From positions 3,310 to 67,309 of the forward strand of contig CAZQFB010000002.1 in the NCBI GenBank assembly GCA_964592525.1: a stretch of 64,000 nucleotides of DNA. Reading direction: 5' to 3'. Under the pieces are notes generated by a model that was given only the letters and a program-made list of their open reading frames with translations, did not search any database and was not told the DNA's origin. Of this stretch, positions 8,536 through 57,857 are shown in pieces (the first letter of the stretch is position 1; each line of letters opens with the position of its first letter). Source of the stretch: an uncultured Candidatus Saccharibacteria bacterium (GTDB lineage Bacteria; Patescibacteriota; WWE3; CAZQFB01). The translations under genes were made by a program, and so were the position numbers.

Positions 8536-8866
8536 ATCTTACCTCGAGCAACTTATTTGACTGATTATATCCAGGTGTTAATTTTGATAATCTGTTTTCA
8601 CTAATGACCAGCTAACCTTTAGTTTGATAAGTCTACAAACCCCCAGGGTTGGGTTTGCTAGTTTGACAGTGTGGTTGAGCAGGAGTATTTTTCTCTTACG
8701 CTCTTGAATAACCAAATGGAGGTGGAGAGGTGAGAGTCCAGAAGCTGCTTTTGGATGTAGCCAAGGTTTTGGCGGTGCTTTTACTTATGGGTTTGGCTGT
8801 TTGGGTGTATCTGGGATGGCAGGTAGAGCCGAAGCTTCCGGTACTGGGTGAGGCGACATATATTGA
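8497..8866. repeat. Direct repeat copy 1 (terminator + promoter region + 5' coding region), about 365 bp
   Basis: Near-identical to 9545-9904 by reading; covers terminator, intergenic region and first ~45 codons. Confidence 0.7.
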
Positions 8867-9536
8867 TTCGCTGATGCCCTTGTCAGAAGATATGGAGGGA
8901 AGATGGTTCTATGAAGGCTACCCTTCGGAAGTGTTTACACTTTCGACCGAGTGGCCTCGAATGCAGATTACTGCTACCGAGCCTTTCATGCTCCCCTATT
9001 GGTCCCAAAAGCTGATTACTGCTACTGAGCCTTTCACGCCCACCTACTGGGTTCGTATGGAGATGGCTGCTACCCAGCCTTTCACGCTGACCTATCTGGG
9101 TTATACACAAGTACCCACGTCCTATCTTTTCCAGCCCCAAGAAGCAGATCCTGTATCAGAACCGCTGACTTGGGGTTGGGGTCAGGGGATCAATGAACCA
9201 AGTCCTGCCTATGAAAATGAACGTTTCGCCCATAACACCTTGCCTCCAGGAGAGGTAGGTAGTTATTACTGGTTTGATTTTGAAGCAATGGGTGGGACCT
9301 GGCAGATAAGCTCGGAAAGAAAACCCCTTGAAGATGGTTGGCCTAAGCTACGGCTTAGAAGTGATCTGCCCTTTAAGGTCTACTCCAGGGCCATTGATGA
9401 GCAAGTGATCACAGCCAATCTGATTGCATCGGTGACTTCGATAATGTGGGTAGTAGGCTATGTAGTGGTCATCTTAGCTATGCTAGCTTATATTGTCAAA
9501 GTTGTGACCGATCTGAGAAAAGAAACCCAGGCCTGA
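8730..9536 (+). CDS. Bitopic surface protein, paralog 2 (with internal 3x repeat expansion)
   Basis: N-terminus MRVQKLLLDVAKVLAVLLLMGLAVW identical to paralog 3; triple ATEPF/ATQPF repeat; C-terminal TM. Confidence 0.65.
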   Translation: MRVQKLLLDVAKVLAVLLLMGLAVWVYLGWQVEPKLPVLGEATYIDSLMPLSEDMEGRWFYEGYPSEVFTLSTEWPRMQITATEPFMLPYWSQKLITATEPFTPTYWVRMEMAATQPFTLTYLGYTQVPTSYLFQPQEADPVSEPLTWGWGQGINEPSPAYENERFAHNTLPPGEVGSYYWFDFEAMGGTWQISSERKPLEDGWPKLRLRSDLPFKVYSRAIDEQVITANLIASVTSIMWVVGYVVVILAMLAYIVKVVTDLRKETQA

Positions 9537-9583: not shown

Positions 9584-9904
9584 ATCTTACCTCGAGCAAC
9601 TTATTTGACTGATTATATCCAGGTGTTAATTTTGATAATCTGTTTTCACTAATGACCAGCTAACCTTTAGTTTGATAAGTCTACAAACCCCCAGGGTTGG
9701 GTTTGCTAGTTTGACAGTGTGGTTGAGCAGGAGTATTTTTCTCTTACGCTCTTGAATAACCAAATGGAGGTGGAGAGGTGAGAGTCCAGAAGCTGCTTTT
9801 GGATGTAGCCAAGGTTTTGGCGGTGCTTTTACTTATGGGTTTGGCTGTTTGGGTGTATCTGGGATGGCAGGTAGAGCCGAAGCTTCCGGTACTGGGTGAG
9901 GCGA
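9545..9904. repeat. Direct repeat copy 2 (terminator + promoter region + 5' coding region)
   Basis: Near-identical to 8497-8866. Confidence 0.7.
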
Positions 9905-10497
9905 TATATGTGGATGAGCTGAAGCCCCTGTCAGAAGAGAAGGGGGGAAACTGGCTCTATGAAGGTTACCCTTCGGAAGTGTTCACCGTTTCTGCCGACG
10001 TGGCACAAATGCAGATTGCTGCCACCCAACCTTTCACGCTCACCTATCTGGGTTATACCAAAGTACCTGCGTCTTATCTTTTCCAGTCTGAAGAAAGACA
10101 GCATGAGGCAGAATTAGTGTCTTGGGTTCAGGAGATAAACCAGCATACGCCTGCCTGGAAGTATGAAACCTCACCTCCCGAGCCATTAACGGTTGCAGAG
10201 GTGGGTAGTTTTTACTGCTTTGATTTTGAAACTCTTGGTGGTACTTGGCAGATAAGTTCGCAGAGAAAACCCCTTGAAGCTGGTTGGCCTAAGCTACGGC
10301 TTAGAAGTGACCAACCCTTTAAGGTCTACTCCCGGACCATTGATGCGCAAGTGATCAAAGCCTATCGGATTAACTCGGTTCTTCCGAGAATACTAGTAGT
10401 AGCTGTGGTAGGTATGATTTTGTCTTTGCTAGCGGTAATTGTCATTGTTGGTACCGATCATACGGGAAAAGAAAGCAGTCAGGGAAAAGAAAACTAG
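9778..10497 (+). CDS. Bitopic surface protein, paralog 3
   Basis: Same N-terminus and conserved blocks as paralogs 1-2; C-terminal TM and short basic tail. Confidence 0.65.
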   Translation: MRVQKLLLDVAKVLAVLLLMGLAVWVYLGWQVEPKLPVLGEAIYVDELKPLSEEKGGNWLYEGYPSEVFTVSADVAQMQIAATQPFTLTYLGYTKVPASYLFQSEERQHEAELVSWVQEINQHTPAWKYETSPPEPLTVAEVGSFYCFDFETLGGTWQISSQRKPLEAGWPKLRLRSDQPFKVYSRTIDAQVIKAYRINSVLPRILVVAVVGMILSLLAVIVIVGTDHTGKESSQGKEN

Positions 10498-13002: not shown

Positions 13003-13032
13003 GACCCCCCCCTCAATATTAGCAGGGGGGTC
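13003..13032. terminator. GC-rich hairpin between convergent genes (possible terminator)
   Basis: gacccccc-loop-ggggggtc, 8-bp stem; no strong T-run on either side. Confidence 0.3.
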
Positions 13033-13152: not shown

Positions 13153-13860
13153 TTAAAAATGCTTGAGGATGCGCTCTAGCTCACCATCCAGAACCCGCTC
13201 TAGTACCTGAAAAGACTTATTCAACCGGTGATCTGTTATTCTGTTTTGGGGAAAGTTATAAGTGCGGATTTTTTCATTTCGCTCACCTGTGCCTACTTGC
13301 TCTCGCCTTAAGTCATCAACCCTTTGTTTATTCTGATCTTGCATCATTTGGTATAACTTAGCTGATAAAGTATTTAAGGCTTTAAGTTTATTTTGGGCTT
13401 GAGACCGTTCATCTTGGCAGGTGACAACTACTCCGGTGGGAAGATGGGTTATTCTAACGGCTGTTTCTACTTTGTTAACATTTTGTCCACCTGCGCCAGT
13501 GGCGCGAAAAGTGTCGTATTTTAGATCTTTGGGGTTGATTTCTAGGGTGGTATTTTGGCTTTGAGGTAAGACGGCTACGGTTACGGTTGAAGTATGAATT
13601 CTTCCAGATGACTCGGTTTTGGGTACTCTCTGTACACGGTGGACACCACTTTCGTGGTTTAAGCTTTTAAAGGCATCAGCGCCAACAATTTGGGCGCTAA
13701 GCACGTTGCCAAGATGGGTATCTTGGTTTTGGAAAGCCCAGCCTTTTTTGAAGGCGTATTTTTGATACATGCGAAACAATTCACTAGCAAATAAGCTGGC
13801 TTCCTCGCCACCAGCGCCCGCTCTAATCTCTAAGATAATTGTGTCTTTACAGGGAGTCAC
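13153..13860 (-). CDS. prfA: Peptide chain release factor 1, N-terminally short (domain 1 not encoded in this ORF)
   Basis: GGQ motif ([11 protein letters not shown]), RF1-type PxT motif (PKT in [10 protein letters not shown]), ORF begins at the position equivalent to the start of domain 2. Confidence 0.8.
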
Positions 13861-13865
13861 GGTTT

Positions 13866-14252
13866 TTATTTATCGGGGGGTAAAGAAGCGGCTTTTTTGG
13901 CAGCCAGAGCAGCTAATTTCGCTAAGTCACTGGTACCGCGCTGGTGTAATTTGGCTTTTTCTTTTTCCACCATCTCTCTTAAGGTTTTAGGGGTGTCTTT
14001 TTCAATATTTTTCTTTGCCTTACGTGTGGCTCTTTCCCGCGCTGATTTTTTGGCTAACTCCTGTTTTTTCTGAAATCTTTCCACCCGACCTTCGGTGTCA
14101 ATTAATTTTTGCTGACCAGTATAAAAGGGATGACATTCCGAACATATCTCAACCTTAATTTCAGGTAAGGTTGAACCAGTGGTAAAAGTATGACCACAAG
14201 AACAAATGACTTTGGCTGCTGGATAATAGGTGGGATGTATTTCTGGTTTCAT
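13866..14252 (-). CDS. rpmE: 50S ribosomal protein L31 with unusual ~65-aa Lys/Ala/Glu-rich C-terminal extension
   Basis: [11 protein letters not shown] ... CSCGHTF ... [11 protein letters not shown]31 core; same frame continues to stop at 13866, directly abutting prfA. Confidence 0.8.
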
Positions 14253-14382
14253 GGTTGTGTTTTCTAAGCGGCGGTATTTTAGCATTGAGGTTAATGATAT
14301 GCAATGGGTGCGGTTTATCACTCCTTAATCTTGACATGATAAAAGGAAGGGGTTGATAATAAACTGTTCCTAATTAATAAAT

Positions 14383-15150
14383 ATGGCAGCAAAAAAAGCA
14401 CCACGTCAGTTTTACTCGCGCAAAAAAACTACCAAAGTAGTCCAACCAAGCACCACTTTAAAAAAGAAAACTATCCGTAAGGTTTCTTCTGCGCGGAGTA
14501 GTTCACTTGCTAGCAGTTCAAGAGGTCAAAACGTGTGGCAAAAATTGAGAGCGACCTCTGTATATCCAGATTTTAGCGATTTGGATGATTTGGTACGTTT
14601 TGCGGCTTATTTTTACTTATTAGCTTTAACGCCCTTGTTGACGGTGTTGATCCAATCGGTTAATACAGCATACTCTCCGGGCAACGAGGTTAAGATTCAG
14701 TTAGCTGATAAATCCCTAAAACCGGAAGCAGCTGTGTTGGGGCAGCAGTACCCACCAGAACAGCTAATTAGAGAGCAAAGTACCCCAAGCTATCCTTTAT
14801 GGCAGGTGGAGTACTCGGGCTATACTGGCTTAGCAGATTCAACAGCAGCTGATTTGATTGAAGCTGAAGTATTGGAATATCGTTTTGATGAACAACCTTT
14901 AGTGACCGTACCGATGGGGGTGAGTTGGCGGACGCTCTTGCCCGTAGAAACTGCGGATCTTTATACTTTTTATGTGGCTGCTCCCGCTACGGCTCGGGTT
15001 TATGTTGATGGGTTGTTGCTAGTTGAAAAAATTAATCCTGACGTACCAAGTGCATATAATTCCGTGCAATTAGAAGTGGGTAAACATGAAGTTAGGGTGG
15101 AGCTTGATGCTACCCCGCAAGTTGCCTCTTTCCAGTTCTTATTTTATTAA
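14383..15150 (+). CDS. Hypothetical membrane-anchored protein with C-terminal beta-sandwich-like region
   Basis: Basic N-terminus, one TM helix, C-terminal segment with PA14-like alternating pattern (inference). Confidence 0.4.
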   Translation: MAAKKAPRQFYSRKKTTKVVQPSTTLKKKTIRKVSSARSSSLASSSRGQNVWQKLRATSVYPDFSDLDDLVRFAAYFYLLALTPLLTVLIQSVNTAYSPGNEVKIQLADKSLKPEAAVLGQQYPPEQLIREQSTPSYPLWQVEYSGYTGLADSTAADLIEAEVLEYRFDEQPLVTVPMGVSWRTLLPVETADLYTFYVAAPATARVYVDGLLLVEKINPDVPSAYNSVQLEVGKHEVRVELDATPQVASFQFLFY

Positions 15151-42611: not shown

Positions 42612-43019
42612 ATGATGGTGACAAGACGCGAGAAAGGTTGGGTGTTGAACACACAGCAAAAGCGCTACTGGAGCTTTTTGTACAACTGTTACCGTTTGGC
42701 TAAGGAGAGCCAAAGAGTATTTTTGGGTTTGTTTCTCTGGTGGGGTTTTTGGTTGCTGCTTTCATTATTGCCTGGAGAGAGTGGCGTTTGGCTGCTCGTG
42801 GACACTGTCGCCTTTTTGGTCTTACTGGTTGTGTCCGTAGTGGGTGTATTAGCTATGAAGTTGTTGGCTGGTTTAGCCACAAGGGCTTACCAGAGAGATC
42901 TTGCGCCTTTGGTGCGACAAGAACGCTGGTTGGCAGAACAGGCGTTTGTGAGAACATGCCAGGCTAATTCCAAGAGGCTGATGGAAAATCGCTGGTGGCG
43001 GCAACCAAAACGAGCTTGA
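42612..43019 (+). CDS. Hypothetical membrane protein
   Basis: 135 aa, two hydrophobic helices; followed by GC hairpin gaggggaggg/cctcccct. Confidence 0.35.
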   Translation: MMVTRREKGWVLNTQQKRYWSFLYNCYRLAKESQRVFLGLFLWWGFWLLLSLLPGESGVWLLVDTVAFLVLLVVSVVGVLAMKLLAGLATRAYQRDLAPLVRQERWLAEQAFVRTCQANSKRLMENRWWRQPKRA

Positions 43020-43091
43020 GAGGGCAAGCGAGGGGAGGGCGCGTCTCCTCCCCTACTTTCTTATAGCTTCAGATTTATATACAATTAGACT

Positions 43092-44846
43092 ATGCCTGCC
43101 CCTGAACCTAATACCACTTCTGCGACCAGTAATTTGGCTGAGTCGTTCACCTCACCCGAGGAGTTGTTGCTCCAGCAAGGTTTATTAACCCCCGAGCAAT
43201 ATGAAGAAATAAAGCAAGAACACATTAATACTGGTCAAGCCATTGAAGATCTTATCTTAGCTCGTGGGTATGTTAATCCTTTGACCTTTAACCAAGCTAA
43301 AGCGAAAGTGTTGGATTTAGCTTATGTGGAAGTTAATGGTTTAGAGGTGCCTTCGTTTATTTTAAATTTTATCCCGGAAACACTAGCCGCTAAGTACCTG
43401 GTACTGCCTTTTAAGGAAGAGGGTGCCAGCTTGCATGTTGCCATGGCGGATCCGCTTGATCTTCAGGTCATCGCTATTGTGGAGAAAAAATCTGGGATGC
43501 GGGTTAAACCCTACTTAGCGGATAAAACTAATCTGGGCTATGCAATCCAACAACAATATAGTAAAGCTTTTGGTTCAGAAGTATCTGAAGCTCTTAAGGA
43601 AGTTGGTCAGCTCACCCTGAAACCAACGAAACTGGATACCTTAGAAGGTACGGAATTGAAGTCTTTGGAGAATGCTCCCGTGGCGAGGATTGTGGGTCAG
43701 ATACTCCAGTATGCGGTTCGCTCTGGTGCTTCTGATGTCCACATTGAACCCGGTGAAGATAAAACGAGAGTACGCTACCGGGTGGATGGTGTGATGTCAG
43801 AGAAGTTAAGTTTACCGCTCACTGTCCATGCTAACTTGGTTTCGCGCGTTAAGATCTTGTCCAATTTGAAGATTGATGAAAAACGGTTACCTCAAGATGG
43901 GCGGTTTAAGGTGCAAGTTGGCACTACGATTATTGACTTAAGGGTGTCAACCTTACCTACAGTCTACGGGGAAAAAGTGGTCATGCGTTTGTTGGAAGGT
44001 GCTGGGCGGGTGATGGGTATTCAGGAATTAGGCATGCGTGGTAGTGCCCTGAAAAGATTTGAGGCTAGTTTATCTAAAACTTTAGGTATGATTTTGGTTA
44101 CTGGTCCGACGGGGAGTGGTAAAACTAACACTTTAGCTTCGGGTTTGGCGAGAGTGAACACGATTAAGGTCAATGTTATTACCTTAGAGGATCCAGTGGA
44201 AATACGTATTCCTGGGGCTAACCAGGTGCAAATCAACCACACTGCCGGTTTAACTTTTGCTTCGGGTTTGCGTTCTATCTTACGACAAGACCCTGATATT
44301 ATTATGGTGGGTGAGATCAGGGATCAAGAAACAGCTGAATTAGCGGTGCATGCTTCCTTAACGGGTCATTTGGTCTTTTCCACCCTGCATACCAAGTCAG
44401 CCGCGGGAGCTCTGCCGCGGTTGTATGACATGAAAGTTGAACCTTTTTTATTGGCTTCTACGGTAAATCTAGTTATGGCGCAGCGTTTGGTGAGAACCCT
44501 GTGTAATAAGTGTAAACAACCTTACGTGCCCAGTGATGAGGTTAAAGCTGATATCAGCACAGTACTTGGTGCTTATCTTTCTCTGGATCTATCTAAGCTG
44601 CAGCTTTATAAACCAGTAGGTTGTAGTGAGTGTGGGTCGGAGGGTTATGCTGGTCGGACGGGAATTTTTGAGGTTTTAGAAGTTACCCCTCGGATTGGTC
44701 GGGCGATCATCCAACGCCAGCCCGAAGGAGAACTCCAAAAGATTGCCGTTGAGGAAGGCATGTTGCCCTTACTACTTGATGGTTATTTGAAAGTGGTTGA
44801 TGGTACAACGACCATTGAGGAAGTCTTAAGAGTAGCCAAGGATTAA
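43092..44846 (+). CDS. pilB: Type IV pilus assembly ATPase PilB (GspE family)
   Basis: N-terminal GspE_N domain, Walker A TGPTGSGKT, tetracysteine motif. Confidence 0.9.
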   Translation: MPAPEPNTTSATSNLAESFTSPEELLLQQGLLTPEQYEEIKQEHINTGQAIEDLILARGYVNPLTFNQAKAKVLDLAYVEVNGLEVPSFILNFIPETLAAKYLVLPFKEEGASLHVAMADPLDLQVIAIVEKKSGMRVKPYLADKTNLGYAIQQQYSKAFGSEVSEALKEVGQLTLKPTKLDTLEGTELKSLENAPVARIVGQILQYAVRSGASDVHIEPGEDKTRVRYRVDGVMSEKLSLPLTVHANLVSRVKILSNLKIDEKRLPQDGRFKVQVGTTIIDLRVSTLPTVYGEKVVMRLLEGAGRVMGIQELGMRGSALKRFEASLSKTLGMILVTGPTGSGKTNTLASGLARVNTIKVNVITLEDPVEIRIPGANQVQINHTAGLTFASGLRSILRQDPDIIMVGEIRDQETAELAVHASLTGHLVFSTLHTKSAAGALPRLYDMKVEPFLLASTVNLVMAQRLVRTLCNKCKQPYVPSDEVKADISTVLGAYLSLDLSKLQLYKPVGCSECGSEGYAGRTGIFEVLEVTPRIGRAIIQRQPEGELQKIAVEEGMLPLLLDGYLKVVDGTTTIEEVLRVAKD

Positions 44847-44849
44847 AAG

Positions 44850-45917
44850 ATGCAGACAAACCCAACCTTAGACGAAATATTAAAAGCGGTTATCAATCTC
44901 CGGGCATCGGATTTACATTTAACGGCGAATCTTCCTCCGATTGTACGGGTGGATGGTACGCTTAAGCCTTTAGAAGGCTTTGCCAGTTTAACTGATGAGC
45001 TGGTTAATGGCTTGGTTTTGGCGATGTTGGGAAAAGAAAAAACCGAACAGCTAAAGCAGAATCTAGAAGTGGATACTTCCTACGCACACGAACAACTGGC
45101 GCGTTTTAGAGTGAATGCCTATTTTCAGCGTTCCCATATAAGTGCTGCTTTGCGGTTGATTCCAGCCAAGATACCCTCTTTGCGGGAATTAGGTATGCCG
45201 GATATTATTGCCACTTTCTGCTCTTTACCTTATGGTTTGGTGCTGGTAACGGGACCAACCGGTCAGGGTAAATCAACCACCATTGCTGCCATGATCCAGT
45301 TGATTAATGAAACCCGTAATGTCCATATTGTCACCATTGAAGATCCGATTGAGTATGTGTTTACCCCCCAAAAAGCGTTAATAACCCAGCGGGAAATGCA
45401 TCATGATACCCATTCTTGGGAGGTGGCTTTGCGCAGTTCACTGCGGGAAGATCCTAATGTTGTTTTGGTGGGAGAGATGCGTGATTTTGAAACCATTGCC
45501 GCAGCGATAACCATTGCCGAAACTGGTCATTTGGTTTTTGCCACCCTGCACACGAGTAGTGCTTCCCAGTCAATTGACCGGATTATTGATGTTTTCCCGG
45601 AAAACCAGCAACAGCAAGTTCGGGTCCAGTTATCGGCGATGCTGGAAGCGGTCATCTCGCAACGGCTGTTACCAAGACTCAACGGTGGGCGGGTGGCAGC
45701 CGTTGAAGTGATGACGGCGACTCCGGCGGTGCGGAATATTATTCGTGAAGGCAAAACGCATCAGGTGGATAATGTCATTGCCACTTCGGCTGATGTGGGG
45801 ATGTTGTCGTATGAATATTCGCTGGCTAATTTAGTAAAAAGCCGGGTTATTGCTGAAGAGGCAGCACTGGCGGCTACCACCAGACCGGAAGAATTAACAC
45901 GCTTACTTAAGAGGTAA
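44850..45917 (+). CDS. pilT: Type IV pilus retraction ATPase PilT
   Basis: 355 aa, Walker A TGPTGQGKSTT, PilT-size without N-terminal GspE_N domain. Confidence 0.88.
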   Translation: MQTNPTLDEILKAVINLRASDLHLTANLPPIVRVDGTLKPLEGFASLTDELVNGLVLAMLGKEKTEQLKQNLEVDTSYAHEQLARFRVNAYFQRSHISAALRLIPAKIPSLRELGMPDIIATFCSLPYGLVLVTGPTGQGKSTTIAAMIQLINETRNVHIVTIEDPIEYVFTPQKALITQREMHHDTHSWEVALRSSLREDPNVVLVGEMRDFETIAAAITIAETGHLVFATLHTSSASQSIDRIIDVFPENQQQQVRVQLSAMLEAVISQRLLPRLNGGRVAAVEVMTATPAVRNIIREGKTHQVDNVIATSADVGMLSYEYSLANLVKSRVIAEEAALAATTRPEELTRLLKR

Positions 45918-45924
45918 AATTGCC

Positions 45925-47127
45925 ATGCCTGTATTAACTTATACTGCTAAAGACCAACAAGGACAGCTTAAAAAAGGAACGGTAGAAGCTCTAGACCCCA
46001 AGAAGGCGGCGGAAGTATTAGCGGGGAGTGAGCTAACCCCGATTACCATTAAAGAACAAAAAACCCGGTTTAGTCTGCGGGAGAAATTGGGTGGTGGTGT
46101 CTCGGGTAAACAGCTGGTAGCTTTCACTCGGCAGTTAGCCACGATGGTGTCTGCTGGTTTGCCCCTGCCCCAATCACTCCAAACACTGGAAACGCAAACC
46201 GACAGTGAGCGCTTGCGTGAAGTTATTGCCGATTTGGTACGTGCGGTTGAAGGCGGTTCCCCACTGTCGCTGGGTATGGAAAAGCATAGTAAAGTCTTCA
46301 GTCCGGTCTATGTAAATTTGGTGAAGGTGGGTGAAGCTTCGGGTAAGCTTGATACGGTGCTTCTTAACTTAGCCGATACGGTCGAAAAATCATACGATTT
46401 TAAGTCAAAAGTACGCACGGCGATGGTTTACCCAACCATGATCATGTTAACAATGCTGGTGGTGTTTACTTTTCTTTTTGTGTTTGTGGTGCCCCAATTA
46501 GCGCAGATTTACGAAAATTTTGAGCGTGAACTGCCCATACAAACCAAATTAGTGATTGCTATTTCTGATTTGTTGACCCAACGGGGTTGGTTGGTCATTC
46601 TGTTATTAATTATGGGCGTAGTGTCGTTTGTGCAGTTTAAAAAGACAGAGCTGGGCAAATATTTTTTGGCACGTTTGGGGTTGAAGTTTCCCATTATTGG
46701 TCATCTGCGTCAAAACGTGGAGATCACCGAATTTACCCGTACTTTAGGTTTACTGGTGCAAAGTGGCGTGCCTATTTTGCAGGCTATGGAGATTGCCACG
46801 CAAAGTATGAACAATCTCTTATTTCGTGAGGGGGTACTAAATGCGACAAAGCAAGTTGAAAGAGGCGTGTCTATAGCAGTTGCCTTAAGCAACACCACCA
46901 CCTTTCCGCCGATGGTGACCCAGATGATCGGGGTAGGTGAACGAACTGGAAAGCTGGATGAGGTTTTGCGCCGGTTATCTGAATTTCTACAAAAGGAAAC
47001 CAACGCTTCCGTAGATAATTTAGCTACAGCTCTGGAACCGATAATACTGGTGGTGTTAGGAGCGATGGTGGGTTTCTTGGTGATGAGTATTATTTTGCCA
47101 ATATATGATTTAACTAGTAGTTTTTAA
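45925..47127 (+). CDS. pilC: Type IV pilus platform protein PilC (GspF family)
   Basis: 400 aa, two GspF repeats, three TM helices. Confidence 0.88.
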   Translation: MPVLTYTAKDQQGQLKKGTVEALDPKKAAEVLAGSELTPITIKEQKTRFSLREKLGGGVSGKQLVAFTRQLATMVSAGLPLPQSLQTLETQTDSERLREVIADLVRAVEGGSPLSLGMEKHSKVFSPVYVNLVKVGEASGKLDTVLLNLADTVEKSYDFKSKVRTAMVYPTMIMLTMLVVFTFLFVFVVPQLAQIYENFERELPIQTKLVIAISDLLTQRGWLVILLLIMGVVSFVQFKKTELGKYFLARLGLKFPIIGHLRQNVEITEFTRTLGLLVQSGVPILQAMEIATQSMNNLLFREGVLNATKQVERGVSIAVALSNTTTFPPMVTQMIGVGERTGKLDEVLRRLSEFLQKETNASVDNLATALEPIILVVLGAMVGFLVMSIILPIYDLTSSF

Positions 47128-47209
47128 GGAGCGTTTGACCGATGCCAAAAGCAGTGTGCTATACTTTTGATGATATGAATAATCTTGCCCAGAGAGGGGG
47201 TGAATCTTA

Positions 47210-47689
47210 ATGATTAAAAATCAAACTGGTTTTACGCTGATTGAGATGTTGATTGTCATGGGGGTGATTGCGATTTTGGCGGTGGCGATTTTAAGTGCTA
47301 TTGACCCAGTTGAACAAATGCGCAAAGCGGAAGATTCCAGGATGAGGTCGGATACAGCGGAACTACTTAATGCCCTTGAGCGTTACTACACCACCTTTAG
47401 GGAATATCCATGGTCTACAGCACCTGATGCGGATTGTCCGCAGTTTGATGGTTCTCCTGCAACTTGTGATTTACCCTTGGATGACTTAATTGACACCAAT
47501 GAACTCAAACCACAGTTTGCTAACCGTGAGCTGGAGAATTATTACATCACCCAAGATAGTAACGATTCAGTACATATCTGTTTTAGACCCCAATCTAAAT
47601 CTTGGGATATGGAGGCTACTACTAAGGCTTATACCCAAACAGGCACAACCGGTTGCACTGCTGATTGTTATGTCTGTGTGCCCGAGTAG
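47210..47689 (+). CDS. pilA: Type IV major pilin
   Basis: Class III signal: KNQTG/FTLIEMLIV with Glu at +5; C-terminal Cys pairs. Confidence 0.85.
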   Translation: MIKNQTGFTLIEMLIVMGVIAILAVAILSAIDPVEQMRKAEDSRMRSDTAELLNALERYYTTFREYPWSTAPDADCPQFDGSPATCDLPLDDLIDTNELKPQFANRELENYYITQDSNDSVHICFRPQSKSWDMEATTKAYTQTGTTGCTADCYVCVPE

Positions 47690-47828
47690 GCTCTTGGTAA
47701 GCTAGCCTGTTGGCTAAAGAGAATGACATTATTAGGGAAAAGCTCCTTAAATGGGGTTTTTTCCTTTTTCTGAAGGTTTTTATCTTTTCAGGCAGGGCGG
47801 AAAATATGGCGCGTGTTACTATTTAATC

Positions 47829-48557
47829 ATGCTCGTTTGCTGGCTATTTCTATTTGGTTTGGTGGTGGGGTCGTTTCTTAATGTGGTTATTGATCGGGTA
47901 CCCCGCCAAGAAAAAATTACCGGACGCTCTCACTGTGATTTTTGCCAGCGGCAATTGAGCTGGCGTGAGCTGCTGCCCCTTATTAGTTTTGTTTGCCAAA
48001 AAGCGCAGAGTAAATGTTGCCACCACCGACTCTCCTGGCAATACCCTCTGGTAGAAGTGGCGACGGGGATTTTGTTTGTCGTGCTTTGGCGCCAAGCAGA
48101 TCTGCTACTCCTGCCTTTGGCAGCTGGGTTGTTGGCGCTCTTAGTGATTGATCTGAAAACAATGCTTTTGCCCCAGACCCTCACCTATCCCCTATTGATA
48201 TTGGCACTTGTGCGCTTAGTTATTCTTCCTGACTTAAATCTGGGCTTAACCTTGTTAGGGGCTTTGGGTGTGGGTCTGTTTTTTTACAGTATTATTGTCA
48301 TCACTAAAGGGAGGGGAATGGGTCAGGGGGATGTGACTTTGGGTGTTTTGGTTAGCCTGATTGCCTCTTGGCCTTATCTGGTAACCTCGCTTTTTGTAGC
48401 CAATCTCTTAGGTGGGGTGGTTGCTTGGCTGCTGCTTCTTTTGGGTGTGAAAAAAAAGAGCGACAAACTACCTTTTGGTCCTTTTTTGATTATCGGGTTA
48501 GCATTAACCCTCCTTAATGGTGAGTGGTTAATGGCGCTGCTCTTTCCGCTCTGGTAG
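47829..48557 (+). CDS. pilD: Prepilin peptidase (A24 family)
   Basis: N-terminal CxxC...CxxC zinc motif, catalytic-type GQGD; start taken at internal ATG. Confidence 0.85.
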   Translation: MLVCWLFLFGLVVGSFLNVVIDRVPRQEKITGRSHCDFCQRQLSWRELLPLISFVCQKAQSKCCHHRLSWQYPLVEVATGILFVVLWRQADLLLLPLAAGLLALLVIDLKTMLLPQTLTYPLLILALVRLVILPDLNLGLTLLGALGVGLFFYSIIVITKGRGMGQGDVTLGVLVSLIASWPYLVTSLFVANLLGGVVAWLLLLLGVKKKSDKLPFGPFLIIGLALTLLNGEWLMALLFPLW

Positions 48558-48601
48558 GGTTTGCCAATGACCTTGAGTATCATGCTAAACTGATAAGGTG
48601 T

Positions 48602-49198
48602 ATGAAAAACTGCTCTGTCACTAACCAAACCGGGTTCACCTTAGTGGAACTGATTATTGCCATGACGCTAATGTCACTGATTGCGTTTGGGTTTCCTTCC
48701 TTTGGCGCCTATAACAATAGACAAGCTATCCAACTCGCTGCCAAACAACTTAAGACAGATCTTAGGGACAGTCAGTCAAGATCGCTTCATGGTACGAAAG
48801 CCAAGGCAACTGGTGATGAGGCTGCTATTTGGGGTTTAAGGTTGACTTTAGCTTCAGATGTTTACCAGCGCTATTATTGTGACGCCACACAAACTTCTCT
48901 GAACGATTATTGCTACAATCAGTGTGTGGCTGATCGGGAGTTCCGTTTACCAAAAGGCGTACAATTTAAAGAGATCACTGCTTACCCGGCTACTGGTGGT
49001 TTGAATGTGGTATTTACACCAGCCACCAACAGTACGGTGTTGTTTCACACTGATGATGGTGCCCCAGTGCAAGTTGGTGGTACCCCAATCACCAGTGTTT
49101 CAGTGGAGTTGGGCATACCCGGTTTTGGTGAGGGAATGACAGAATCTCGCTATGTGGTAATTGATAAAAACGGTAATATTGAAGATCTTAAACTATGA
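48602..49198 (+). CDS. Minor pilin / pseudopilin
   Basis: Prepilin motif TNQTG/FTLVELIIAM with Glu at +5. Confidence 0.7.
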   Translation: MKNCSVTNQTGFTLVELIIAMTLMSLIAFGFPSFGAYNNRQAIQLAAKQLKTDLRDSQSRSLHGTKAKATGDEAAIWGLRLTLASDVYQRYYCDATQTSLNDYCYNQCVADREFRLPKGVQFKEITAYPATGGLNVVFTPATNSTVLFHTDDGAPVQVGGTPITSVSVELGIPGFGEGMTESRYVVIDKNGNIEDLKL

Positions 49199-49812
49199 CC
49201 TGTCCCGCTAATAATCATCAAGACCTAACCAACTCCCCTGCTTCTGGTCAGGGTTTAATTGAAGCCATGCTGGCAGTAGCAGTTGTCATGGTCGTGATGT
49301 ATTCATTGCTCAATTTAGGGGCGCTGGGGTTAAGAAACTCTAGATTGGCTAGTGATCGGGTGGTGGCGACCAGATACCTACAGCAAGGGATTGAGCTTTT
49401 ACGGGCACAGCGTGACCAGAGTGGTGGTTGGAGTCAGCTAAGCGCGCTGCCGAAAGATACGGTCTTATGTTTAAATCCGCAAACGGGTGTAATTAGTGCG
49501 GGTGAACCTAATTGTTATTACGAAGACGGCGGTTTGAGGGAAGAATACCTTTTAAACCAGGTGTTTGAGCGGACGCTATTGGTGTCAAAGGTCTATCGTG
49601 CGGCAGCAGAAGCTTGTCCTAATGATTGTAGTGCCTGTGGTGAGATTACCAGTGCTGTGGGTGGTCATGTGGATGATTGTTCTCTGAAAATCACTGTGCA
49701 ATTGGCTTGGCCGGGGGTGAGCGCGAATTGCGAAGACCACCCGGTTTTAGGCGTGGTTGGTAATAAATATTGCTTGCGAACCAGCACCATACTGACTAAT
49801 TGGCGGCAATGA
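49195..49812 (+). CDS. Minor pilin-like protein
   Basis: GQGLIEAMLAV prepilin-like N-terminus; start overlaps upstream stop. Confidence 0.6.
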   Translation: MTCPANNHQDLTNSPASGQGLIEAMLAVAVVMVVMYSLLNLGALGLRNSRLASDRVVATRYLQQGIELLRAQRDQSGGWSQLSALPKDTVLCLNPQTGVISAGEPNCYYEDGGLREEYLLNQVFERTLLVSKVYRAAAEACPNDCSACGEITSAVGGHVDDCSLKITVQLAWPGVSANCEDHPVLGVVGNKYCLRTSTILTNWRQ

Positions 49813-50468
49813 TAAAACAAAAAGGTTTTACCATGATTGAGGTGTTGTTGACCTTGGGGGTCTTGTCCCTTATTTCAACCGTAGCCTTAACCATCTTTCA
49901 AGAAACAATGGCGACTTACCAAAAAGCTAATAATATGTTGGAGCTGGAAAGCAACGGTGGTTACGTGCTTAGCCTGCTAGAGGAAAAAATTAGGTCCGCG
50001 CAGGCAGTGTTAGCTTATAAGGATTATGACAGTTGTACGGAAGGGTGTGCGAGTAGTTGGCTTTTGTTAGTTCCGGCTCATAAAACAGTTTCAGTGGCGT
50101 GCATTTATCTGGGCCATGTTCATGACTCTGGGGGCGATCCTGACCTGTGGCCGAATAATGGGTATGTTTTTCTGCAGGAAGGGACGTCTGCCCAATGTAC
50201 TGCGCTTAACCCTGCGGAGGATCTGGATGGCAGTCTGCTTGATAGTTGGCAGACAGCAGCGCTGTCCAATCGCAACCAAGACGATCCCTTTAATGGTGTT
50301 AATGTGTCCTCGTTAGTATTTATGATTGCGCAACAGGTGGGTAATGACCCAGCCACAGTGGGGATTGCTTTGGATTTAAAGCAAGGCGTGAGTGGCAATC
50401 CGCTAACCGTGGTACCAGAAAATAAAAAAGCCTCTTTGCACCTAGAAACTACTGTTTCTCTGCGCTAA
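49800..50468 (+). CDS. Minor pilin-like protein
   Basis: KG/FTMIEVLLTLGV prepilin motif. Confidence 0.7.
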   Translation: MAAMIKQKGFTMIEVLLTLGVLSLISTVALTIFQETMATYQKANNMLELESNGGYVLSLLEEKIRSAQAVLAYKDYDSCTEGCASSWLLLVPAHKTVSVACIYLGHVHDSGGDPDLWPNNGYVFLQEGTSAQCTALNPAEDLDGSLLDSWQTAALSNRNQDDPFNGVNVSSLVFMIAQQVGNDPATVGIALDLKQGVSGNPLTVVPENKKASLHLETTVSLR

Positions 50469-50480
50469 AATAAAGAAAGT

Positions 50481-52907
50481 ATGCTGCCCCAAAAGAGTCT
50501 GCTTAAATTAACTACTTCTTTAATTTTCACCTTGGCTTGGCTGGTTAGTTATCCCTCTGTGGCGCAAGCGGAGGATCAGTGGCAGGTGGTGGGTGATTAT
50601 CCAGGCACTATTAATAATTCTTTTAATGAGGTTTTAGATGAAAAAGCTCCTAATTGTACCGATGGTAGTATTTACTCCTTAAACGGTCATTTGTATGTAA
50701 TTATAGATGGACCTTATTATCGCACAACTGTTTATCGGCTGGATGGCAATTCATGGGTAAATATTGGAGAAATTACTAAAAGTAGCGGTTCAAGTAATCC
50801 TGGAAAAGCTATGACATACTACCAAGATAATCTTTATGCTATTAGCCGTGCCTACACTAGAGAATACATTTTTCCTGATGGTGATATTACTACTCAATGG
50901 GATAGTACGGGAGTTGATCATTACACTGAGGTAGATGAAGACGTACTAGCTCCCATAGCGGGAGATACCAACGATCACATTTATGGTCGTATGAATGATG
51001 TCGATCAATTCAGCCTGAGTGATCCCACCAAAAATGAGACTGCTAATCGAATAGATATTCATTTTTACGGTAGGGGGATCCATGACAAACCCGATAACAC
51101 TGATTGGGCCCCTGTATTGGTGGAACTTATGCTTGATGGCGTGGCAATATCCGATGATACTTTAAGTTTGCCCAATAACAACTGGGGTTGGTTTACCACT
51201 AATCACGCGAATAATGTTGAATTAACACCTTCAGAGTTAAACAGGTTAGAGCTCAAATTAACACCCAACCATGTACAAGACATGACAACTTATTATATTG
51301 CTGCTGTCGTCGTGGAGGTATCATATGATTCAGCACTAACGGCAGCGAAATATATTTCTGATAATAATTGGCAACCCTTAGGCAATACCTCCCTAGATTG
51401 TGATGATACAGGCAGTGCTTATTTTAGCTGCAATACTACTGGTGTGACTGGTTTTTGGGGTTATAACAATAAACTGTATGTAGGTACTGGTGCTTCTACT
51501 GGTCCGAAAGTGTTTGAGTGGAATGGTTCTACTTGGTCTTTAGTGGGATCATCTGGGCTGGGTGATCGTGCGGGGGGAACCGATCGGGGTAGTCTTGATT
51601 TACTTACTCATGACTCAAGCCTGGTGGCGGGAGGTATGCAGAACACAACCTGCACAGTATGCCTTTCACCCGGTAATTGTGTGCCTGGGGTTTCATGTTC
51701 CTTAGCTTCAATATATAAATTTAATTCTGCTAATAATTGGAGTTATCTTGCTTATGATAATGACACCACTATGACCGCTGTTGCTGACACTAATGCTCGT
51801 TCTTTAGTGGAAATTGCCAGTACTTTATACACGCATGATGTAAATAGTGTTTATAAATACATTCCTGATGCGGGGCATCCTGACCCCGATATTATGGGTT
51901 TAGTGGGGAGTCGGAGGTTTAATTCTCCTGCGCAAAATGTAGGTATGACCTCTTGTGATAATTATTTATACACCCATGCTTCTAGGTCTAGCTTTGGCAC
52001 CTGGGATGAGGTTTATCGCTTTGATACTACTAGTGGTACTCAATGGGACATGGTCGGTGATTATTTTGCACTGGGTGAAAAGCATCTGTACCACGGGGTG
52101 CACAGCATCACCACCTTAAATGATAAGGTTTATGTTCTTACTAAACAGTCATTGGATGATCTTGAGTTTCATATTTTAGTTAGTTACAAAGGATTGCTGT
52201 CTAATTTTGAACCATATCCTGCTGTGCAAGTGTGGGAGTATACCGGCGCGGCGGGCAGTTGCGGTGCCGTCAATGGCACTATCAGCGGCGTGGTGTTTGA
52301 GGATGAGGATCTGGATGGTCTTTATGATACGGGCGAAAGTTATAAGTCTGGGGTGGTCGTAAGCCTTAATCCCGGAGGTCTTTCCGTCAATTCCTTAGCA
52401 GCGGACCCAAGCTATACTTTCACCGAGCTAGACCCTAGTCCCACGTACTCCCTAGCGATTACGTTGCCCAGTGGCTGGGTGGCCACCACACCCTACCAGG
52501 TTGGTAACATTGTCTTTAATGAAACCACTCCCTCTTACACCATCAACTTTGGTTTGATCCAAGGCGGTACCCTTCAAGGTACGGTTTGGGAAGATGAGGA
52601 CAAGCAATGCGACATTGATCCCGGTGAGCAAAATTACACTGGTGCAGTGGTTGATCTTCAGTTTGACCACAGCTTGTCCACCTCAAACCCTCAACTAAAA
52701 TATGATGTAGCCACCTCATCGGAGATCACCACGGGTACTAATTTTTCTTGGCTGGTGGCGCCTGGTAGTTATACCGTCAGCGTGGACTCTAGTCCTTGGG
52801 CACCTTCGGGGTACGATGCTACTACTGACACCAGTGTTAGTGGGGTGGTGGTTACTAAAGGCGGCACAACCACTACGTCAGCAGCAAGTTGTCTTAACTT
52901 GGAGTGA
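50481..52907 (+). CDS. Large secreted protein with C-terminal SdrD-B/Cna-B-like repeats (candidate pilus-associated adhesin)
   Basis: Signal peptide; repeated G.V.EDED.DG.YD.GE motifs near C-terminus; embedded in pilus operon. Confidence 0.5.
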   Translation: MLPQKSLLKLTTSLIFTLAWLVSYPSVAQAEDQWQVVGDYPGTINNSFNEVLDEKAPNCTDGSIYSLNGHLYVIIDGPYYRTTVYRLDGNSWVNIGEITKSSGSSNPGKAMTYYQDNLYAISRAYTREYIFPDGDITTQWDSTGVDHYTEVDEDVLAPIAGDTNDHIYGRMNDVDQFSLSDPTKNETANRIDIHFYGRGIHDKPDNTDWAPVLVELMLDGVAISDDTLSLPNNNWGWFTTNHANNVELTPSELNRLELKLTPNHVQDMTTYYIAAVVVEVSYDSALTAAKYISDNNWQPLGNTSLDCDDTGSAYFSCNTTGVTGFWGYNNKLYVGTGASTGPKVFEWNGSTWSLVGSSGLGDRAGGTDRGSLDLLTHDSSLVAGGMQNTTCTVCLSPGNCVPGVSCSLASIYKFNSANNWSYLAYDNDTTMTAVADTNARSLVEIASTLYTHDVNSVYKYIPDAGHPDPDIMGLVGSRRFNSPAQNVGMTSCDNYLYTHASRSSFGTWDEVYRFDTTSGTQWDMVGDYFALGEKHLYHGVHSITTLNDKVYVLTKQSLDDLEFHILVSYKGLLSNFEPYPAVQVWEYTGAAGSCGAVNGTISGVVFEDEDLDGLYDTGESYKSGVVVSLNPGGLSVNSLAADPSYTFTELDPSPTYSLAITLPSGWVATTPYQVGNIVFNETTPSYTINFGLIQGGTLQGTVWEDEDKQCDIDPGEQNYTGAVVDLQFDHSLSTSNPQLKYDVATSSEITTGTNFSWLVAPGSYTVSVDSSPWAPSGYDATTDTSVSGVVVTKGGTTTTSAASCLNLE

Positions 52908-52930
52908 GCTAAAAATAATATGGAGGTAAC

Positions 52931-53482
52931 ATGAACAAAAAAGCAGTCATCTTAATAGGATCCTTAATCGTGCTTATATTTTTGGGTTTAGCGACTTGGT
53001 ATATCAATCATAACCCAAAAAACACTTCCGAGGCTGCTCAAATAGCAGTGCCTTTTGGCAGCCATGAAAGTGGCGCGCAAAATAGCCAAGCAAATTTAGC
53101 CAACGATCCTCGTTATAAGGACTACCGTACGGAACCAGTACCACCCTCCTCTGACTTTAGTGTGTTTTTAACTGATGCTTTTGGTACCGAGATAGCCAAC
53201 GATTCGGTGATTACCGTTGATGACTCCAGTTATATCACTAATTATGACCTGCACTTTCCTAATTTAGGTCAGCTGGAAAGTGGAGAGAGTTACACCTTAT
53301 GGTTACAAACGGACGAGGGTGCCCGCACACTGCTAGGTCAACTTGAGGTGGCGGAAGGTGTGGGTGTCTATCAGGCAGCAGGGTCAAGAGTGAAAGCGGG
53401 CTGGAGCATTTTGGTGATATATGAAAATAGCGCTAATGAAGAAAACCTGATTTACCGAGGCAGATTAATACCTAAGCCATAA
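52931..53482 (+). CDS. Hypothetical membrane-anchored protein
   Basis: 183 aa, N-terminal TM. Confidence 0.4.
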   Translation: MNKKAVILIGSLIVLIFLGLATWYINHNPKNTSEAAQIAVPFGSHESGAQNSQANLANDPRYKDYRTEPVPPSSDFSVFLTDAFGTEIANDSVITVDDSSYITNYDLHFPNLGQLESGESYTLWLQTDEGARTLLGQLEVAEGVGVYQAAGSRVKAGWSILVIYENSANEENLIYRGRLIPKP

Positions 53483-55776
53483 TGAAAAACCACCCTCCCC
53501 TACTTGGCTTAGTCACCATTATGACCTTACTGGGAGTGGGTTGGTTAGTGGTGCGTGAGGTCCAGGCCAGTTTTGGTGTTTATCCCAAGAATGGCACTTT
53601 TACTGGCTATGTGTTTGAGGATTTAGATAGTGATGGGGTGAGAGATGTCGGCGAACCCAACTATAACTTTACCCTCAACCCTTATTACTCTATTACATAC
53701 CAGGGTCCCGAGAATGGTAACTTGTTGGTTAACGGTGCTGTATCTCCTACTAAAAATCTGGTTTCCAATGAGGTGCGGCCTGGTTTGTATACGGTTAATT
53801 TTGGTACCCTGCCCGCGGGTTTTATGTTAACCACTTCACCAAGCCAGCAGGTTAATGTACCACCAGGGGGAGTGGCTCCGGAGGTTTTGTCTTTTGGCAT
53901 TAAAGTTGGCCCCCCACGGATAGAGGGCGTGGTGTGTGATGATTCAAATAATAATAATAGTTGTGACGCGGGGGAAGAATTAAGCGGAATAACTGTGGGT
54001 TACACCACACCCACTTTAGGCAGTAACTTTGTGACCACACCCACCACTCAAATTGCGAGCTGCTCTGGTTGTAACTACACGACCATGGAGAACACGCCCT
54101 CACTTTACCCAGGCACTAATCTAGTAGCAGTCACTATTCCGCTGGGGAAAATACTTAAGTCACCTACACAACCACAACAGAAAGAGTTAGTGCTGGGAGA
54201 ACATTGGCAGGTTGATTTTGTTTTTGGTGGTGAAACGGATGGTCGGATTGGTGGCTATCTGTGGAATGACTATAACCAAAATAGCTTATATGATGAGGAA
54301 GAAGACGAAACGATATTAAATGACCAGCGATTTACGATTTCTGTTTGGGAAGGTGGTCATGAGTACTTCTCTGCTCCTCCTCATCCGGCGGCTGGTACTT
54401 ACCTGACTGACCTTCTGACCCCTGCTTCCGATTACAATGTTAACTTAGAGCTGCCTTGGGGATATTGTTTGGGTGATCTGGGGGTGGCGGAGGTAGGTTG
54501 GAATGATAATGAGTCTGTTTATGAATATGCAGTTAAAGAGTCTCCTCTGGAGACCGGTTCAGTGATTGAAGTGACTGGTGGTGCGGTGTCTACCGTTAAT
54601 TTAGGTGTGTTGTCTGATTATGATCTCTCGCAAGACCCACCAACGGATGTTATTTTAACGCCTCCTGATGAGGCTACCGTCCGGCTGATTATTGATGATG
54701 TGGGAGATGCTACTCCCTGTTGGGGGGGTGGTGATGTCTCTGTTGCTTTTGACGACAGTGGCTGGCCACCAGGATTAACTTTCAGCACAACTCCGCCTGT
54801 ACCGGCTCTTCTTGATCCCAACTCTAAACCGGATTTTTATCTGACAATTTCTGCTGATAGCACAGTGCATGATGGTATTTATCCATATGAATATATAGCT
54901 ACTAATCCTTTCCGCGGTAAAGTGCTGGGGGGGTACAATGTGGTCGTTGGTTTGCGTAGCTGGCTTCAGCTGGTTGACTTAGATGTGTTTTCAGCCTACA
55001 CCGGTATTGAACCACCCATTAATTTTGTGCTGCCCCAGACTCCTTGTTGTGGATACTCTCCCTATTTAGTGACGAGAAGCACGTCGGCTTGGGGGGGTGG
55101 TGATTTAGGTGGGATGGCCGTGGCGGTGGGCCAAATAGACATTGCGGTGACCACTACGGCTGGAGATCCCGCGGCTAGCAGCCGGAGTTGGGTCTTGAAT
55201 CAGTATACAGGTGATCTTGGTTTGCCCCTTAGTGAGTTGGCGCTTGGTTTGGTGAGTACAGAGTGTGATTTTGACCAGCTGGTACCGGGGGGTGCTTGCC
55301 AGTACGAAGGTAAGTACCTGCCAGATGGTTATGACCTTACCGGAGTGGGCGTGGCGGTGGTTTATGTGCCAGATGATTTGTTTATTAATACAGATTTTAG
55401 ATCGGACGCGGTTAATGAACGGGTGATCATTGTCGTTGCTGGTGAGATTAAGATTGCAGGGTCAGTGGGCGTGCCCTACAACCCCCCCTCCACGTACGCT
55501 AATATTGAAGCGGTGCTGATTACTTTAGACGGCTGGGATATTATTCTGGATAGTAATGATAATTTAAGTGAACAACTGCGCCTGACTGGTGGCTTGTATG
55601 CTTCCGGGCATCTGGAAAATATGCGTGAGGTCCAGGAAAGTGGTGGTCAGGTTAATACCTTCCCGTCTTTGGTGGTGAGCAGGGATCCGTTCTATTACCA
55701 TACGCCTATCTATCAGTTTTCAAAAGTAAAATTGCACTGGCGAGAAGTTAATTTTATGCCAACTAACTATGACTAA
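53482..55776 (+). CDS. Large secreted protein with SdrD-B-like repeats (second candidate pilus-associated adhesin)
   Basis: N-terminal anchor; GYVFEDLDSDGVRDVGEP and GGYLWNDYNQNSLYDEEED motifs. Confidence 0.5.
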   Translation: MKNHPPLLGLVTIMTLLGVGWLVVREVQASFGVYPKNGTFTGYVFEDLDSDGVRDVGEPNYNFTLNPYYSITYQGPENGNLLVNGAVSPTKNLVSNEVRPGLYTVNFGTLPAGFMLTTSPSQQVNVPPGGVAPEVLSFGIKVGPPRIEGVVCDDSNNNNSCDAGEELSGITVGYTTPTLGSNFVTTPTTQIASCSGCNYTTMENTPSLYPGTNLVAVTIPLGKILKSPTQPQQKELVLGEHWQVDFVFGGETDGRIGGYLWNDYNQNSLYDEEEDETILNDQRFTISVWEGGHEYFSAPPHPAAGTYLTDLLTPASDYNVNLELPWGYCLGDLGVAEVGWNDNESVYEYAVKESPLETGSVIEVTGGAVSTVNLGVLSDYDLSQDPPTDVILTPPDEATVRLIIDDVGDATPCWGGGDVSVAFDDSGWPPGLTFSTTPPVPALLDPNSKPDFYLTISADSTVHDGIYPYEYIATNPFRGKVLGGYNVVVGLRSWLQLVDLDVFSAYTGIEPPINFVLPQTPCCGYSPYLVTRSTSAWGGGDLGGMAVAVGQIDIAVTTTAGDPAASSRSWVLNQYTGDLGLPLSELALGLVSTECDFDQLVPGGACQYEGKYLPDGYDLTGVGVAVVYVPDDLFINTDFRSDAVNERVIIVVAGEIKIAGSVGVPYNPPSTYANIEAVLITLDGWDIILDSNDNLSEQLRLTGGLYASGHLENMREVQESGGQVNTFPSLVVSRDPFYYHTPIYQFSKVKLHWREVNFMPTNYD

Positions 55777-57826: not shown

Positions 57827-57857
57827 AAAATGCTACAATTTAAACGAGGATCTGCCC

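Follow-up and report, generated by a model that had tools for sequence, protein, structure and literature searches.

A release factor 1 gene lacking domain 1, adjacent to a tailed bL31 gene, in a Patescibacteria contig

Domain 1 is the least conserved domain of the release factors (RFs), and is dispensable for recognising the codon and for releasing the peptide in vitro (Baranov et al. 2006, PMC1586002). E. coli RF1 and RF2 have been engineered without it, as laboratory constructs with growth costs, and a truncated RF1 works in vivo, domain 1 being needed for the stimulation of RF3 (PMC1586002, citing Mora et al. 2003); many small genomes lack prfC (PMC1586002). Class-I RF homologues without domain 1 include PrfH (RFH), which is translationally coupled to an upstream gene (PMC1586002), carries altered decoding residues and has an RtcB-like partner. 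ArfB/ICT1/mtRF-R are likewise GGQ-domain release factors without domain 1, having no codon-recognition domains and a C-terminal tail that lies in the mRNA channel. A survey of release-factor evolution described only the canonical architecture with an N-terminal helical domain (PMC6514570), and reductive evolution has already been described for the ribosomes of the candidate phyla radiation (CPR; PMC9297842).

Here we describe a prfA gene encoding domains 2, 3 and 4 of RF1 only, together with the upstream rpmE gene, which encodes ribosomal protein bL31 (L31) with a long C-terminal tail. Both lie in a 64,000-nucleotide (64-kb) stretch of DNA, hereafter the window, from an uncultured Candidatus Saccharibacteria bacterium (assembly GCA_964592525.1, contig CAZQFB010000002.1, positions 3,310 to 67,309 of the forward strand). 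To our knowledge, only engineered truncations and specialised paralogues (PrfH, ArfB) have shown domain 1 to be dispensable. A full-text search of the literature found no description of a domain-1-less RF1 in the CPR, nor of the L31 tail motif reported below. With the engineered domain-1 deletions the short RF1 shares its architecture, being their clean counterpart in nature and not a new mechanism; those are laboratory constructs, whereas the form in the window is natural to a large clade, in which it is conserved. We put at about 85% the probability that these are two separate genes, the RF1 being the lineage's prfA orthologue without domain 1 and the L31 tail an independent extension.

The first-pass annotation of this DNA had pointed to a release-factor open reading frame (ORF) of 235 amino acids (aa) with GGQ and PxT motifs, starting where domain 2 begins and lacking approximately 100 N-terminal residues of RF1, and these observations hold. 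Both motifs can be read in the ORF (Table 1), and its alignment to the NCBIfam prfA profile (351 bits) runs from position 105 to 336 of 347, leaving approximately 104 N-terminal and 11 C-terminal profile positions missing. Pfam PCRF (PF03462) is matched over positions 101-194 of 194 (125 bits, against a cut-off of 24) and the Pfam RF-1 domain (PF00472) is complete (143 bits, against a cut-off of 35), while identity to residues 74-318 of T. maritima RF1 is 54-60%. An AlphaFold2 (AF2) model of the protein (predicted local distance difference test, pLDDT, 83) superposes in Foldseek on domains 2-4 of RF1 from T. thermophilus and E. coli in its ribosome-bound form (TMq 0.75, 235 columns). Because the first beta-strand of the model starts at residue 6, the truncation is placed at the domain boundary; domain 1 would have been removed cleanly, leaving approximately five residues ahead of the beta-strand with which domain 2 opens.

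Like canonical RF1 (prfA; TIGR00019/PRK00591), the window protein has domains 2, 3 and 4, the PxT, GGQ, GRIHTS, DERSQ and RTYNFPQ motifs, and a position adjacent to rpmE; unlike canonical RF1, it is without the whole N-terminal helical domain 1. The decoding elements that it keeps are the helix 5 tip GGxE, QRVPxT and GRIHTS. Across an alignment of 46 short, intermediate and full-length RF1s (A2), the decoding and catalytic residues are unchanged: E11, G17, G18, E20, Q77, R78, P80, G86, R87, H89, T90 and S91 are invariant, and T82 is at least 90% conserved. All three stop codons are used in the window, with TAG ending 11 of the 56 long ORFs, and RF1 activity is therefore needed. The window protein most likely works as a minimal RF1 at UAA and UAG, without L11-stalk docking or RF3. 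Such a minimal class-I factor would bind the A-site, decode UAA and UAG, and release the peptide via GGQ; lacking both RF3-assisted recycling and the contact that domain 1 makes with the L11 stalk, it would dissociate from the ribosome spontaneously. This agrees with the behaviour of E. coli RF1 engineered without domain 1.

A search for RF1 homologues, covering 5.8 billion proteins, placed the window protein within a graded series. Among the 113 top matches with a recognisable RAGxGG, 52 were short, 14 intermediate and 47 full-length. The short RF1s (226-260 aa) start M-x(3-10)-ILEIRAGxGG, at the same point as the window protein; the intermediate ones (283-315 aa) keep only the last domain-1 helix or helices (…DPEMKQMAEEE…LLPKDP…), and the full-length matches are of 350-370 aa. 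The residues preceding RAGxGG accordingly number approximately 113-125 where domain 1 is full, 55-90 where half of it is kept, and 8-25 where there is none. A representative library clustered at 50% merged short and long RF1s, and so added little.

In a neighbour-joining (NJ) tree of the common core, the short and intermediate RF1s cluster together, separate from the full-length proteins, and are, judged from this tree, one CPR/Patescibacteria clade. Members with a name belong to candidate division WWE3, to Curtissbacteria and to 'Patescibacteria group'; genome contigs with a short RF1, among the matches listed, come from Liptonbacteria, Saccharibacteria, WWE3 and unclassified Patescibacteria MAGs, including an 829-kb closed chromosome. 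The short form is also carried by the closed CPR genome OY970354.1. The window is placed in the CPR/Patescibacteria by its named neighbours in the RF1 and L31 searches, which are WWE3, Roizmanbacteria, Curtissbacteria and Patescibacteria group. These comparisons strongly support a truncation that is natural and conserved across a large CPR clade, and the loss of domain 1 probably represents lineage-wide reductive evolution in CPR/Patescibacteria, graded from full through half to none. One RF1 of the short clade (P0033, 347 aa) has an extra Pfam match, to PF12728 (HTH_17), besides PCRF and RF-1, which could reflect either a fusion made in gene calling or a module that has truly taken the place of domain 1.

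The first-pass annotation had offered three explanations for the missing domain: a genuinely domain-1-less RF1, a -1 frameshift or fusion that links RF1 to the tail of L31, and a sequencing indel. The last of these, widened to any sequencing or assembly indel or pseudogene that leaves a full-length prfA broken in the assembly or in the organism, draws on the unusual length of the RF1 and on nothing else. A domain-1 hidden Markov model (HMM), built from 47 full-length RF1s and able to find the half-domain N-termini of intermediate RF1s at E-values of 1e-5 to 1e-24 as a positive control, gave no domain-1 match in the six-frame translation of the 64-kb window (best E 0.8), so there is no single-indel repair to be made. 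An identical RF1 protein was found in an independent Logan assembly, dozens of orthologues share the same start, the catalytic and decoding residues are invariant, and the frame of the L31 tail is conserved at the protein level in relatives. A broken gene is thus exceedingly improbable. The comparison of orthologous loci revealed the same L31-short RF1 architecture in other assemblies, and because the short RF1 and the extended L31 recur in many independent assemblies, their combination is, on this evidence, not a chance feature. It is the genuinely domain-1-less RF1 that is borne out, by the 52 short clusters, by the recurring L31-RF1 pair and by short genes that stand alone (L167, L168).

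A domain-1-less protein might also be a specialised paralogue, serving in rescue or another special context in the manner of PrfH or ArfB, with a canonical full-length RF1 encoded elsewhere in the genome. The known homologues of this kind, PrfH and ArfB/ICT1, are specialised factors (PMC1586002), and the survey for RF genes covered only 64 kb of the genome. The family scores of the window protein fall in another order, with prfA at 351 bits, prfB at 226, prfH at 82 and ArfB at 53; its match to the PrfH model TIGR03072 (82.3 bits) lies below the cut-off of 166.65, as does that to ArfB (52.9 bits, against a cut-off of 100), which extends over residues 103-138 only. In contrast to PrfH, with its changed decoding residues and its RtcB-like partner, the window protein has the PxT and decoding residues of RF1, with rpmE upstream and no RtcB-like gene near it; where ArfB has no codon-recognition domains, it has domains 2 and 4 intact. 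No RF2 was found in the contig stretches examined at the relatives' loci.

The position of the gene bears on the same question. Directly 5' of a full-length prfA, rpmE is found in Thermocrinis, Omnitrophota, Planctomycetia, several CPR genomes and other lineages, and the short gene is therefore in the canonical prfA slot; the NJ tree likewise places the short and intermediate proteins as the CPR branch of RF1, and not as a paralogue group of their own. Taken together, the protein is best regarded from its sequence as a prfA orthologue, not as PrfH or ArfB, and a specialised paralogue is improbable.

The rpmE gene encodes a complete L31 followed by additional sequence. Pfam Ribosomal_L31 (PF01197) spans residues 1-63 (E=4.5e-30, 104 bits, against a cut-off of 27) and NCBIfam L31 (NF000612) residues 1-69 (100 bits, against a cut-off of 70), leaving 59-65 residues beyond the profiles; this agrees with the earlier description of an ORF running approximately 65 codons past the usual L31 end, in a K/A/E-rich stretch that terminates in ...SLPPDK. 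The ORF lister opens the gene at GTG 14321, whereas MKPEIHP is where the L31 profiles begin, as do all homologues. As in bL31 type A, there is a Zn-ribbon core with CxC...CxxC (C17, C19, C37 and C40, all conserved) and a complete profile match; what sets the window L31 apart is a helical tail of 60 residues, in which a PKTL(K/R)EM motif is conserved. The AF2 model (mean pLDDT 84) predicts helices along the tail (Table 1), and Foldseek with this model returned bL31 chains only.

The motif is present in 73 of the 120 best L31 matches, mostly proteins of approximately 100 aa, and in an alignment of 49 sequences (A1) conservation is 90% or more at both P88 and L91. In approximately 70 motif-bearing CPR L31s, the motif is preceded by a charged linker of approximately 28 residues, like that of the window in length and composition. 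The distal extension is common to P0122, P0123, P0124, P0185 and L166 (…EKEKxxLKxxGTSxLAxxAAxAVKSAKK…). The tail would thus comprise a long charged helix and the PKTLREM motif, with two more helices in the window's sub-lineage. CPR bL31 has been noted as larger, with nothing further said of it (Tsurumaki et al. 2022, PMC9297842). In other ribosomes, bL31 forms bridge B1b, from the central protuberance to the 30S head, and the association of the subunits is affected by its C-terminal residues (PMC9966373); the tail probably makes a further contact, at or close to the 30S-head side of this bridge.

Other tails occur on L31 proteins outside this group. In the Anaerolineae/Chloroflexi, L31s of 152-157 aa (P0157, P0166, P0170, P0201, P0215 and P0217) carry a C-terminal helix-hairpin-helix (HhH) like that of the RNA polymerase alpha C-terminal domain (alpha-CTD); PF03118 is on record for five of these six, with none recorded for P0215, which has a similar tail. 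This module is attached at the same L31 site as the CPR tail, yet is a different module. A reading of PK(T/S)LKEM as a relic of the Anaerolineae HhH (GKKSLxEIK) was not supported, hhalign pairing TLKE with SLID at a probability of 0.15%. A third conserved tail type, …RLERRQSESARRE…ARKARARGDNPEAAAAEVMAKYDL, is found in L31s of approximately 113 aa (P0158, P0171-P0174, P0177, P0209, P0212, P0222, P0226, P0232, P0235 and P0237), one of which is named as Caldilineaceae.

The proximity of the two genes raises the question of recoding, in which a programmed -1/+2 frameshift or a readthrough at the L31 stop would yield one polypeptide, with the L31 tail standing in for the domain 1 that RF1 lacks. 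The 5-nucleotide (nt) spacing and the helical, K/E/A-rich character of the tail are compatible with this; furthermore, hhalign sets 12 tail residues on the DPEMxxLAxEE helix of domain 1 (P=0.26), and a conceptual fusion of tail and RF1 lets the prfA profile alignment reach position 40, although the score rises by only approximately 4 bits (351.1 to 355.2). When the tail was aligned to RF1 domain-1 profiles, as had been proposed at the outset, there was no similarity, with E=1.1 for the domain-1 HMM and an hhalign probability of 0.1-0.2%, and structural matches of the L31 model were confined to bL31. In four loci (L016, L019, L088 and L093), the L31 motif coexists with an RF1 that still has the DPEM helix, that is, half of domain 1; as these lineages already have the motif, L31 did not acquire it from RF1 at the loss of domain 1. 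The tail is best taken as an independent, conserved CPR-type bL31 extension, separate from RF1 domain 1.

The junction itself also argues against a fusion. The first-pass annotation had correctly placed the L31 stop 5 nt before the RF1 GTG and found the other two frames closed: across the tail, stops are numerous in the other two minus-strand frames, and at least five interrupt the RF1 frame within 200 nt 5' of its GTG, with a TAA in this frame 12 nt upstream of the GTG. No slippery heptamer was seen by eye at AAA TAA AAA CCG TGA, where no dedicated scan was made. Among relatives, the L31 stop may be TAA, TAG or TGA, the relative frame 0, 1 or 2, and the spacing anything from -1 to +30 nt, as TAATG/ATGA overlaps or gaps of 9-30 nt, while some pairs are unlinked. 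This variability excludes a conserved frameshift or readthrough, and differs from prfB, where a programmed +1 frameshift expresses the release factor by recoding at an in-frame stop; the L31/RF1 junction has no frame relation, shift site or stop identity conserved across relatives. The closest RF1 relatives (L167 and L168, 66-69% identity) have no L31 upstream, and instead a TATAAT-like box just 5' of the ATG. Joining of the tail to RF1, by frameshift or otherwise, is highly improbable.

The variation in stop, frame and spacing instead indicates that L31 and RF1 are two translationally coupled cistrons with no recoding. Since the spacer holds neither a promoter-like nor a Shine-Dalgarno-like site, translational coupling is likely, and rpmE and prfA would be co-transcribed. 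The L31 and short RF1 pair is also found in other assemblies, including L166, from a different sequencing run, in which a short RF1 begins 11 nt after a 131-aa L31 that has the distal extension. The occurrence of rpmE beside full-length prfA in distant lineages suggests that rpmE-prfA translational coupling is ancient and widespread. In some distant bacteria (L006, L023, L025, L030, L034, L037 and L053), the rpmE stop lies -11 to -1 nt from the start of a full-length prfA.

Even as separate products, the two proteins could act as partners in trans, with the L31 tail motif making up for the lost domain 1; it might, for instance, hold RF1 or the 30S head in position or stabilise either. Coupling of the genes is tight, and all 13 independent loci in which a motif-bearing L31 is paired adjoin a truncated RF1, none a full-length one: eight have a short RF1 (the window itself, WIN, and L002, L003, L087, L090, L100, L112 and L166) and five an intermediate RF1 (L016, L019, L088, L093 and L121). 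This association is confounded by phylogeny, as shared ancestry alone would give the same pattern. Short RF1s are also found with motif-less L31s (L036, L080, L138, L143 and L101) or away from L31 (L167 and L168), and motif-less L31s pair with short, intermediate and full RF1s. The tail has no sequence or structural similarity to domain 1, and the place of bL31 in known ribosomes is the central protuberance and the 30S head (PMC9966373). Such a partnership is, on balance, very improbable. The L11 stalk, the docking site of domain 1, is far from bL31. It is equally doubtful that a ribosome-borne L31 tail replaces the factor-borne domain 1 in RF binding or recycling, with the coupling of the genes kept for that purpose.

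Several points weigh against the reading of two separate genes with a short prfA orthologue. The window RF1 scores below the NCBIfam equivalog cut-offs (351.1 against 400 for NF001859, and 349.3 against 423.25 for TIGR00019), and by the equivalog rule, strictly applied, is not called an RF1; this shortfall is expected, because approximately 100 residues are missing. A tblastn search found no RF-like sequence besides the RF1 gene in the 64-kb window, a scope that takes in the window only. The RF1 GTG has no recognisable Shine-Dalgarno sequence, the exact start and the coupling being inferred, and the role proposed for the L31 tail is based solely on the location of bL31 in other ribosomes (PMC9966373).

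The cut-offs also have consequences for annotation, as RF1s that score below them are named 'PCRF domain-containing' or 'release factor-like', and such names could be misread as loss of RF1 or a change of genetic code in CPR genomes. A sole visible prfA orthologue with no domain 1, or half of it, across a large clade is a natural experiment on the role of domain 1 with the L11 stalk and RF3, and leads to the prediction that termination in these CPR organisms is RF3-independent. The conserved bL31 tail motif is a second undescribed feature of the CPR ribosome.

Table 1. Features of the rpmE-prfA locus, in window coordinates
Feature	Position	Strand	Remarks
prfA variant, domains 2-4 only	13153..13860	-	235 aa; GTG start at 13860, TAA stop at 13155-13153; domain 1 absent
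GGQ peptidyl-tRNA hydrolysis motif, G124-G125-Q126	13483..13491	-	read in sequence; invariant in alignment A2
PxT 'anticodon' tripeptide P80-K81-T82 (PKT)	13615..13623	-	read in sequence
Spacer AAACC, L31 stop to RF1 GTG	13861..13865	-	5 nt; without promoter-like site or Shine-Dalgarno-like sequence
rpmE, bL31 type A (CxC...CxxC)	13866..14252	-	128 aa, 60-65 residue C-terminal extension; ATG at 14252, TAA at 13868-13866; Pfam, NCBIfam
Distal L31 extension, residues 96-128	13869..13967	-	AF2: two predicted helices, 91-104 and 106-123
L31 tail motif T-P-K-T-L-R-E-M-V	13968..13994	-	family consensus (R)PK[T/S]L[K/R]EM[L/M]
K/E/A-rich linker, approximately residues 64-86	13995..14063	-	AF2: one long helix, 56-86; block pLDDT 83-95
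Weak sigma-70-like match GTGATA-16-TATCAT, 5' of rpmE	14294..14321	-	9/12 matches; consensus only

The order HisRS-EamA-L31-RF1 is common to the window and to metagenome contigs L003-L005. In the window, EamA and rpmE are separated by a 255-aa ORF with no Pfam match (14383-15150, plus strand), which is on the opposite strand and breaks this order, which is uninterrupted in L003-L005. On the other side of the locus, between RF1 and a convergent DUF1294 gene, a hairpin of G/C runs with a 12-nt loop, GACCCCCCCC…GGGGGGTC (approximately 13003-13032), may be a bidirectional terminator; it was not called in the terminator scan and has no T-run.

Further from the locus, two tandem ORFs of 268 and 239 aa (8730-9536 and 9778-10497, plus strand), neither with a Pfam match, are identical over their first 42 residues (VRVQKLLLDVAKVLAVLLLMGLAVWVYLGWQVEPKLPVLGEA) and diverge from residue 43, and are likely to stem from a membrane-anchored protein that was duplicated in tandem recently. 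Finally, a long same-strand cluster at approximately 43000-59300 (plus strand) includes several prepilin-type N-termini (…GFTLIEMLIV…, …GFTLVELIIAM… and …KGFTMIEVLLT…), and, judged by eye, appears to be a type IV pilus or pseudopilus locus, of a kind common in the CPR.

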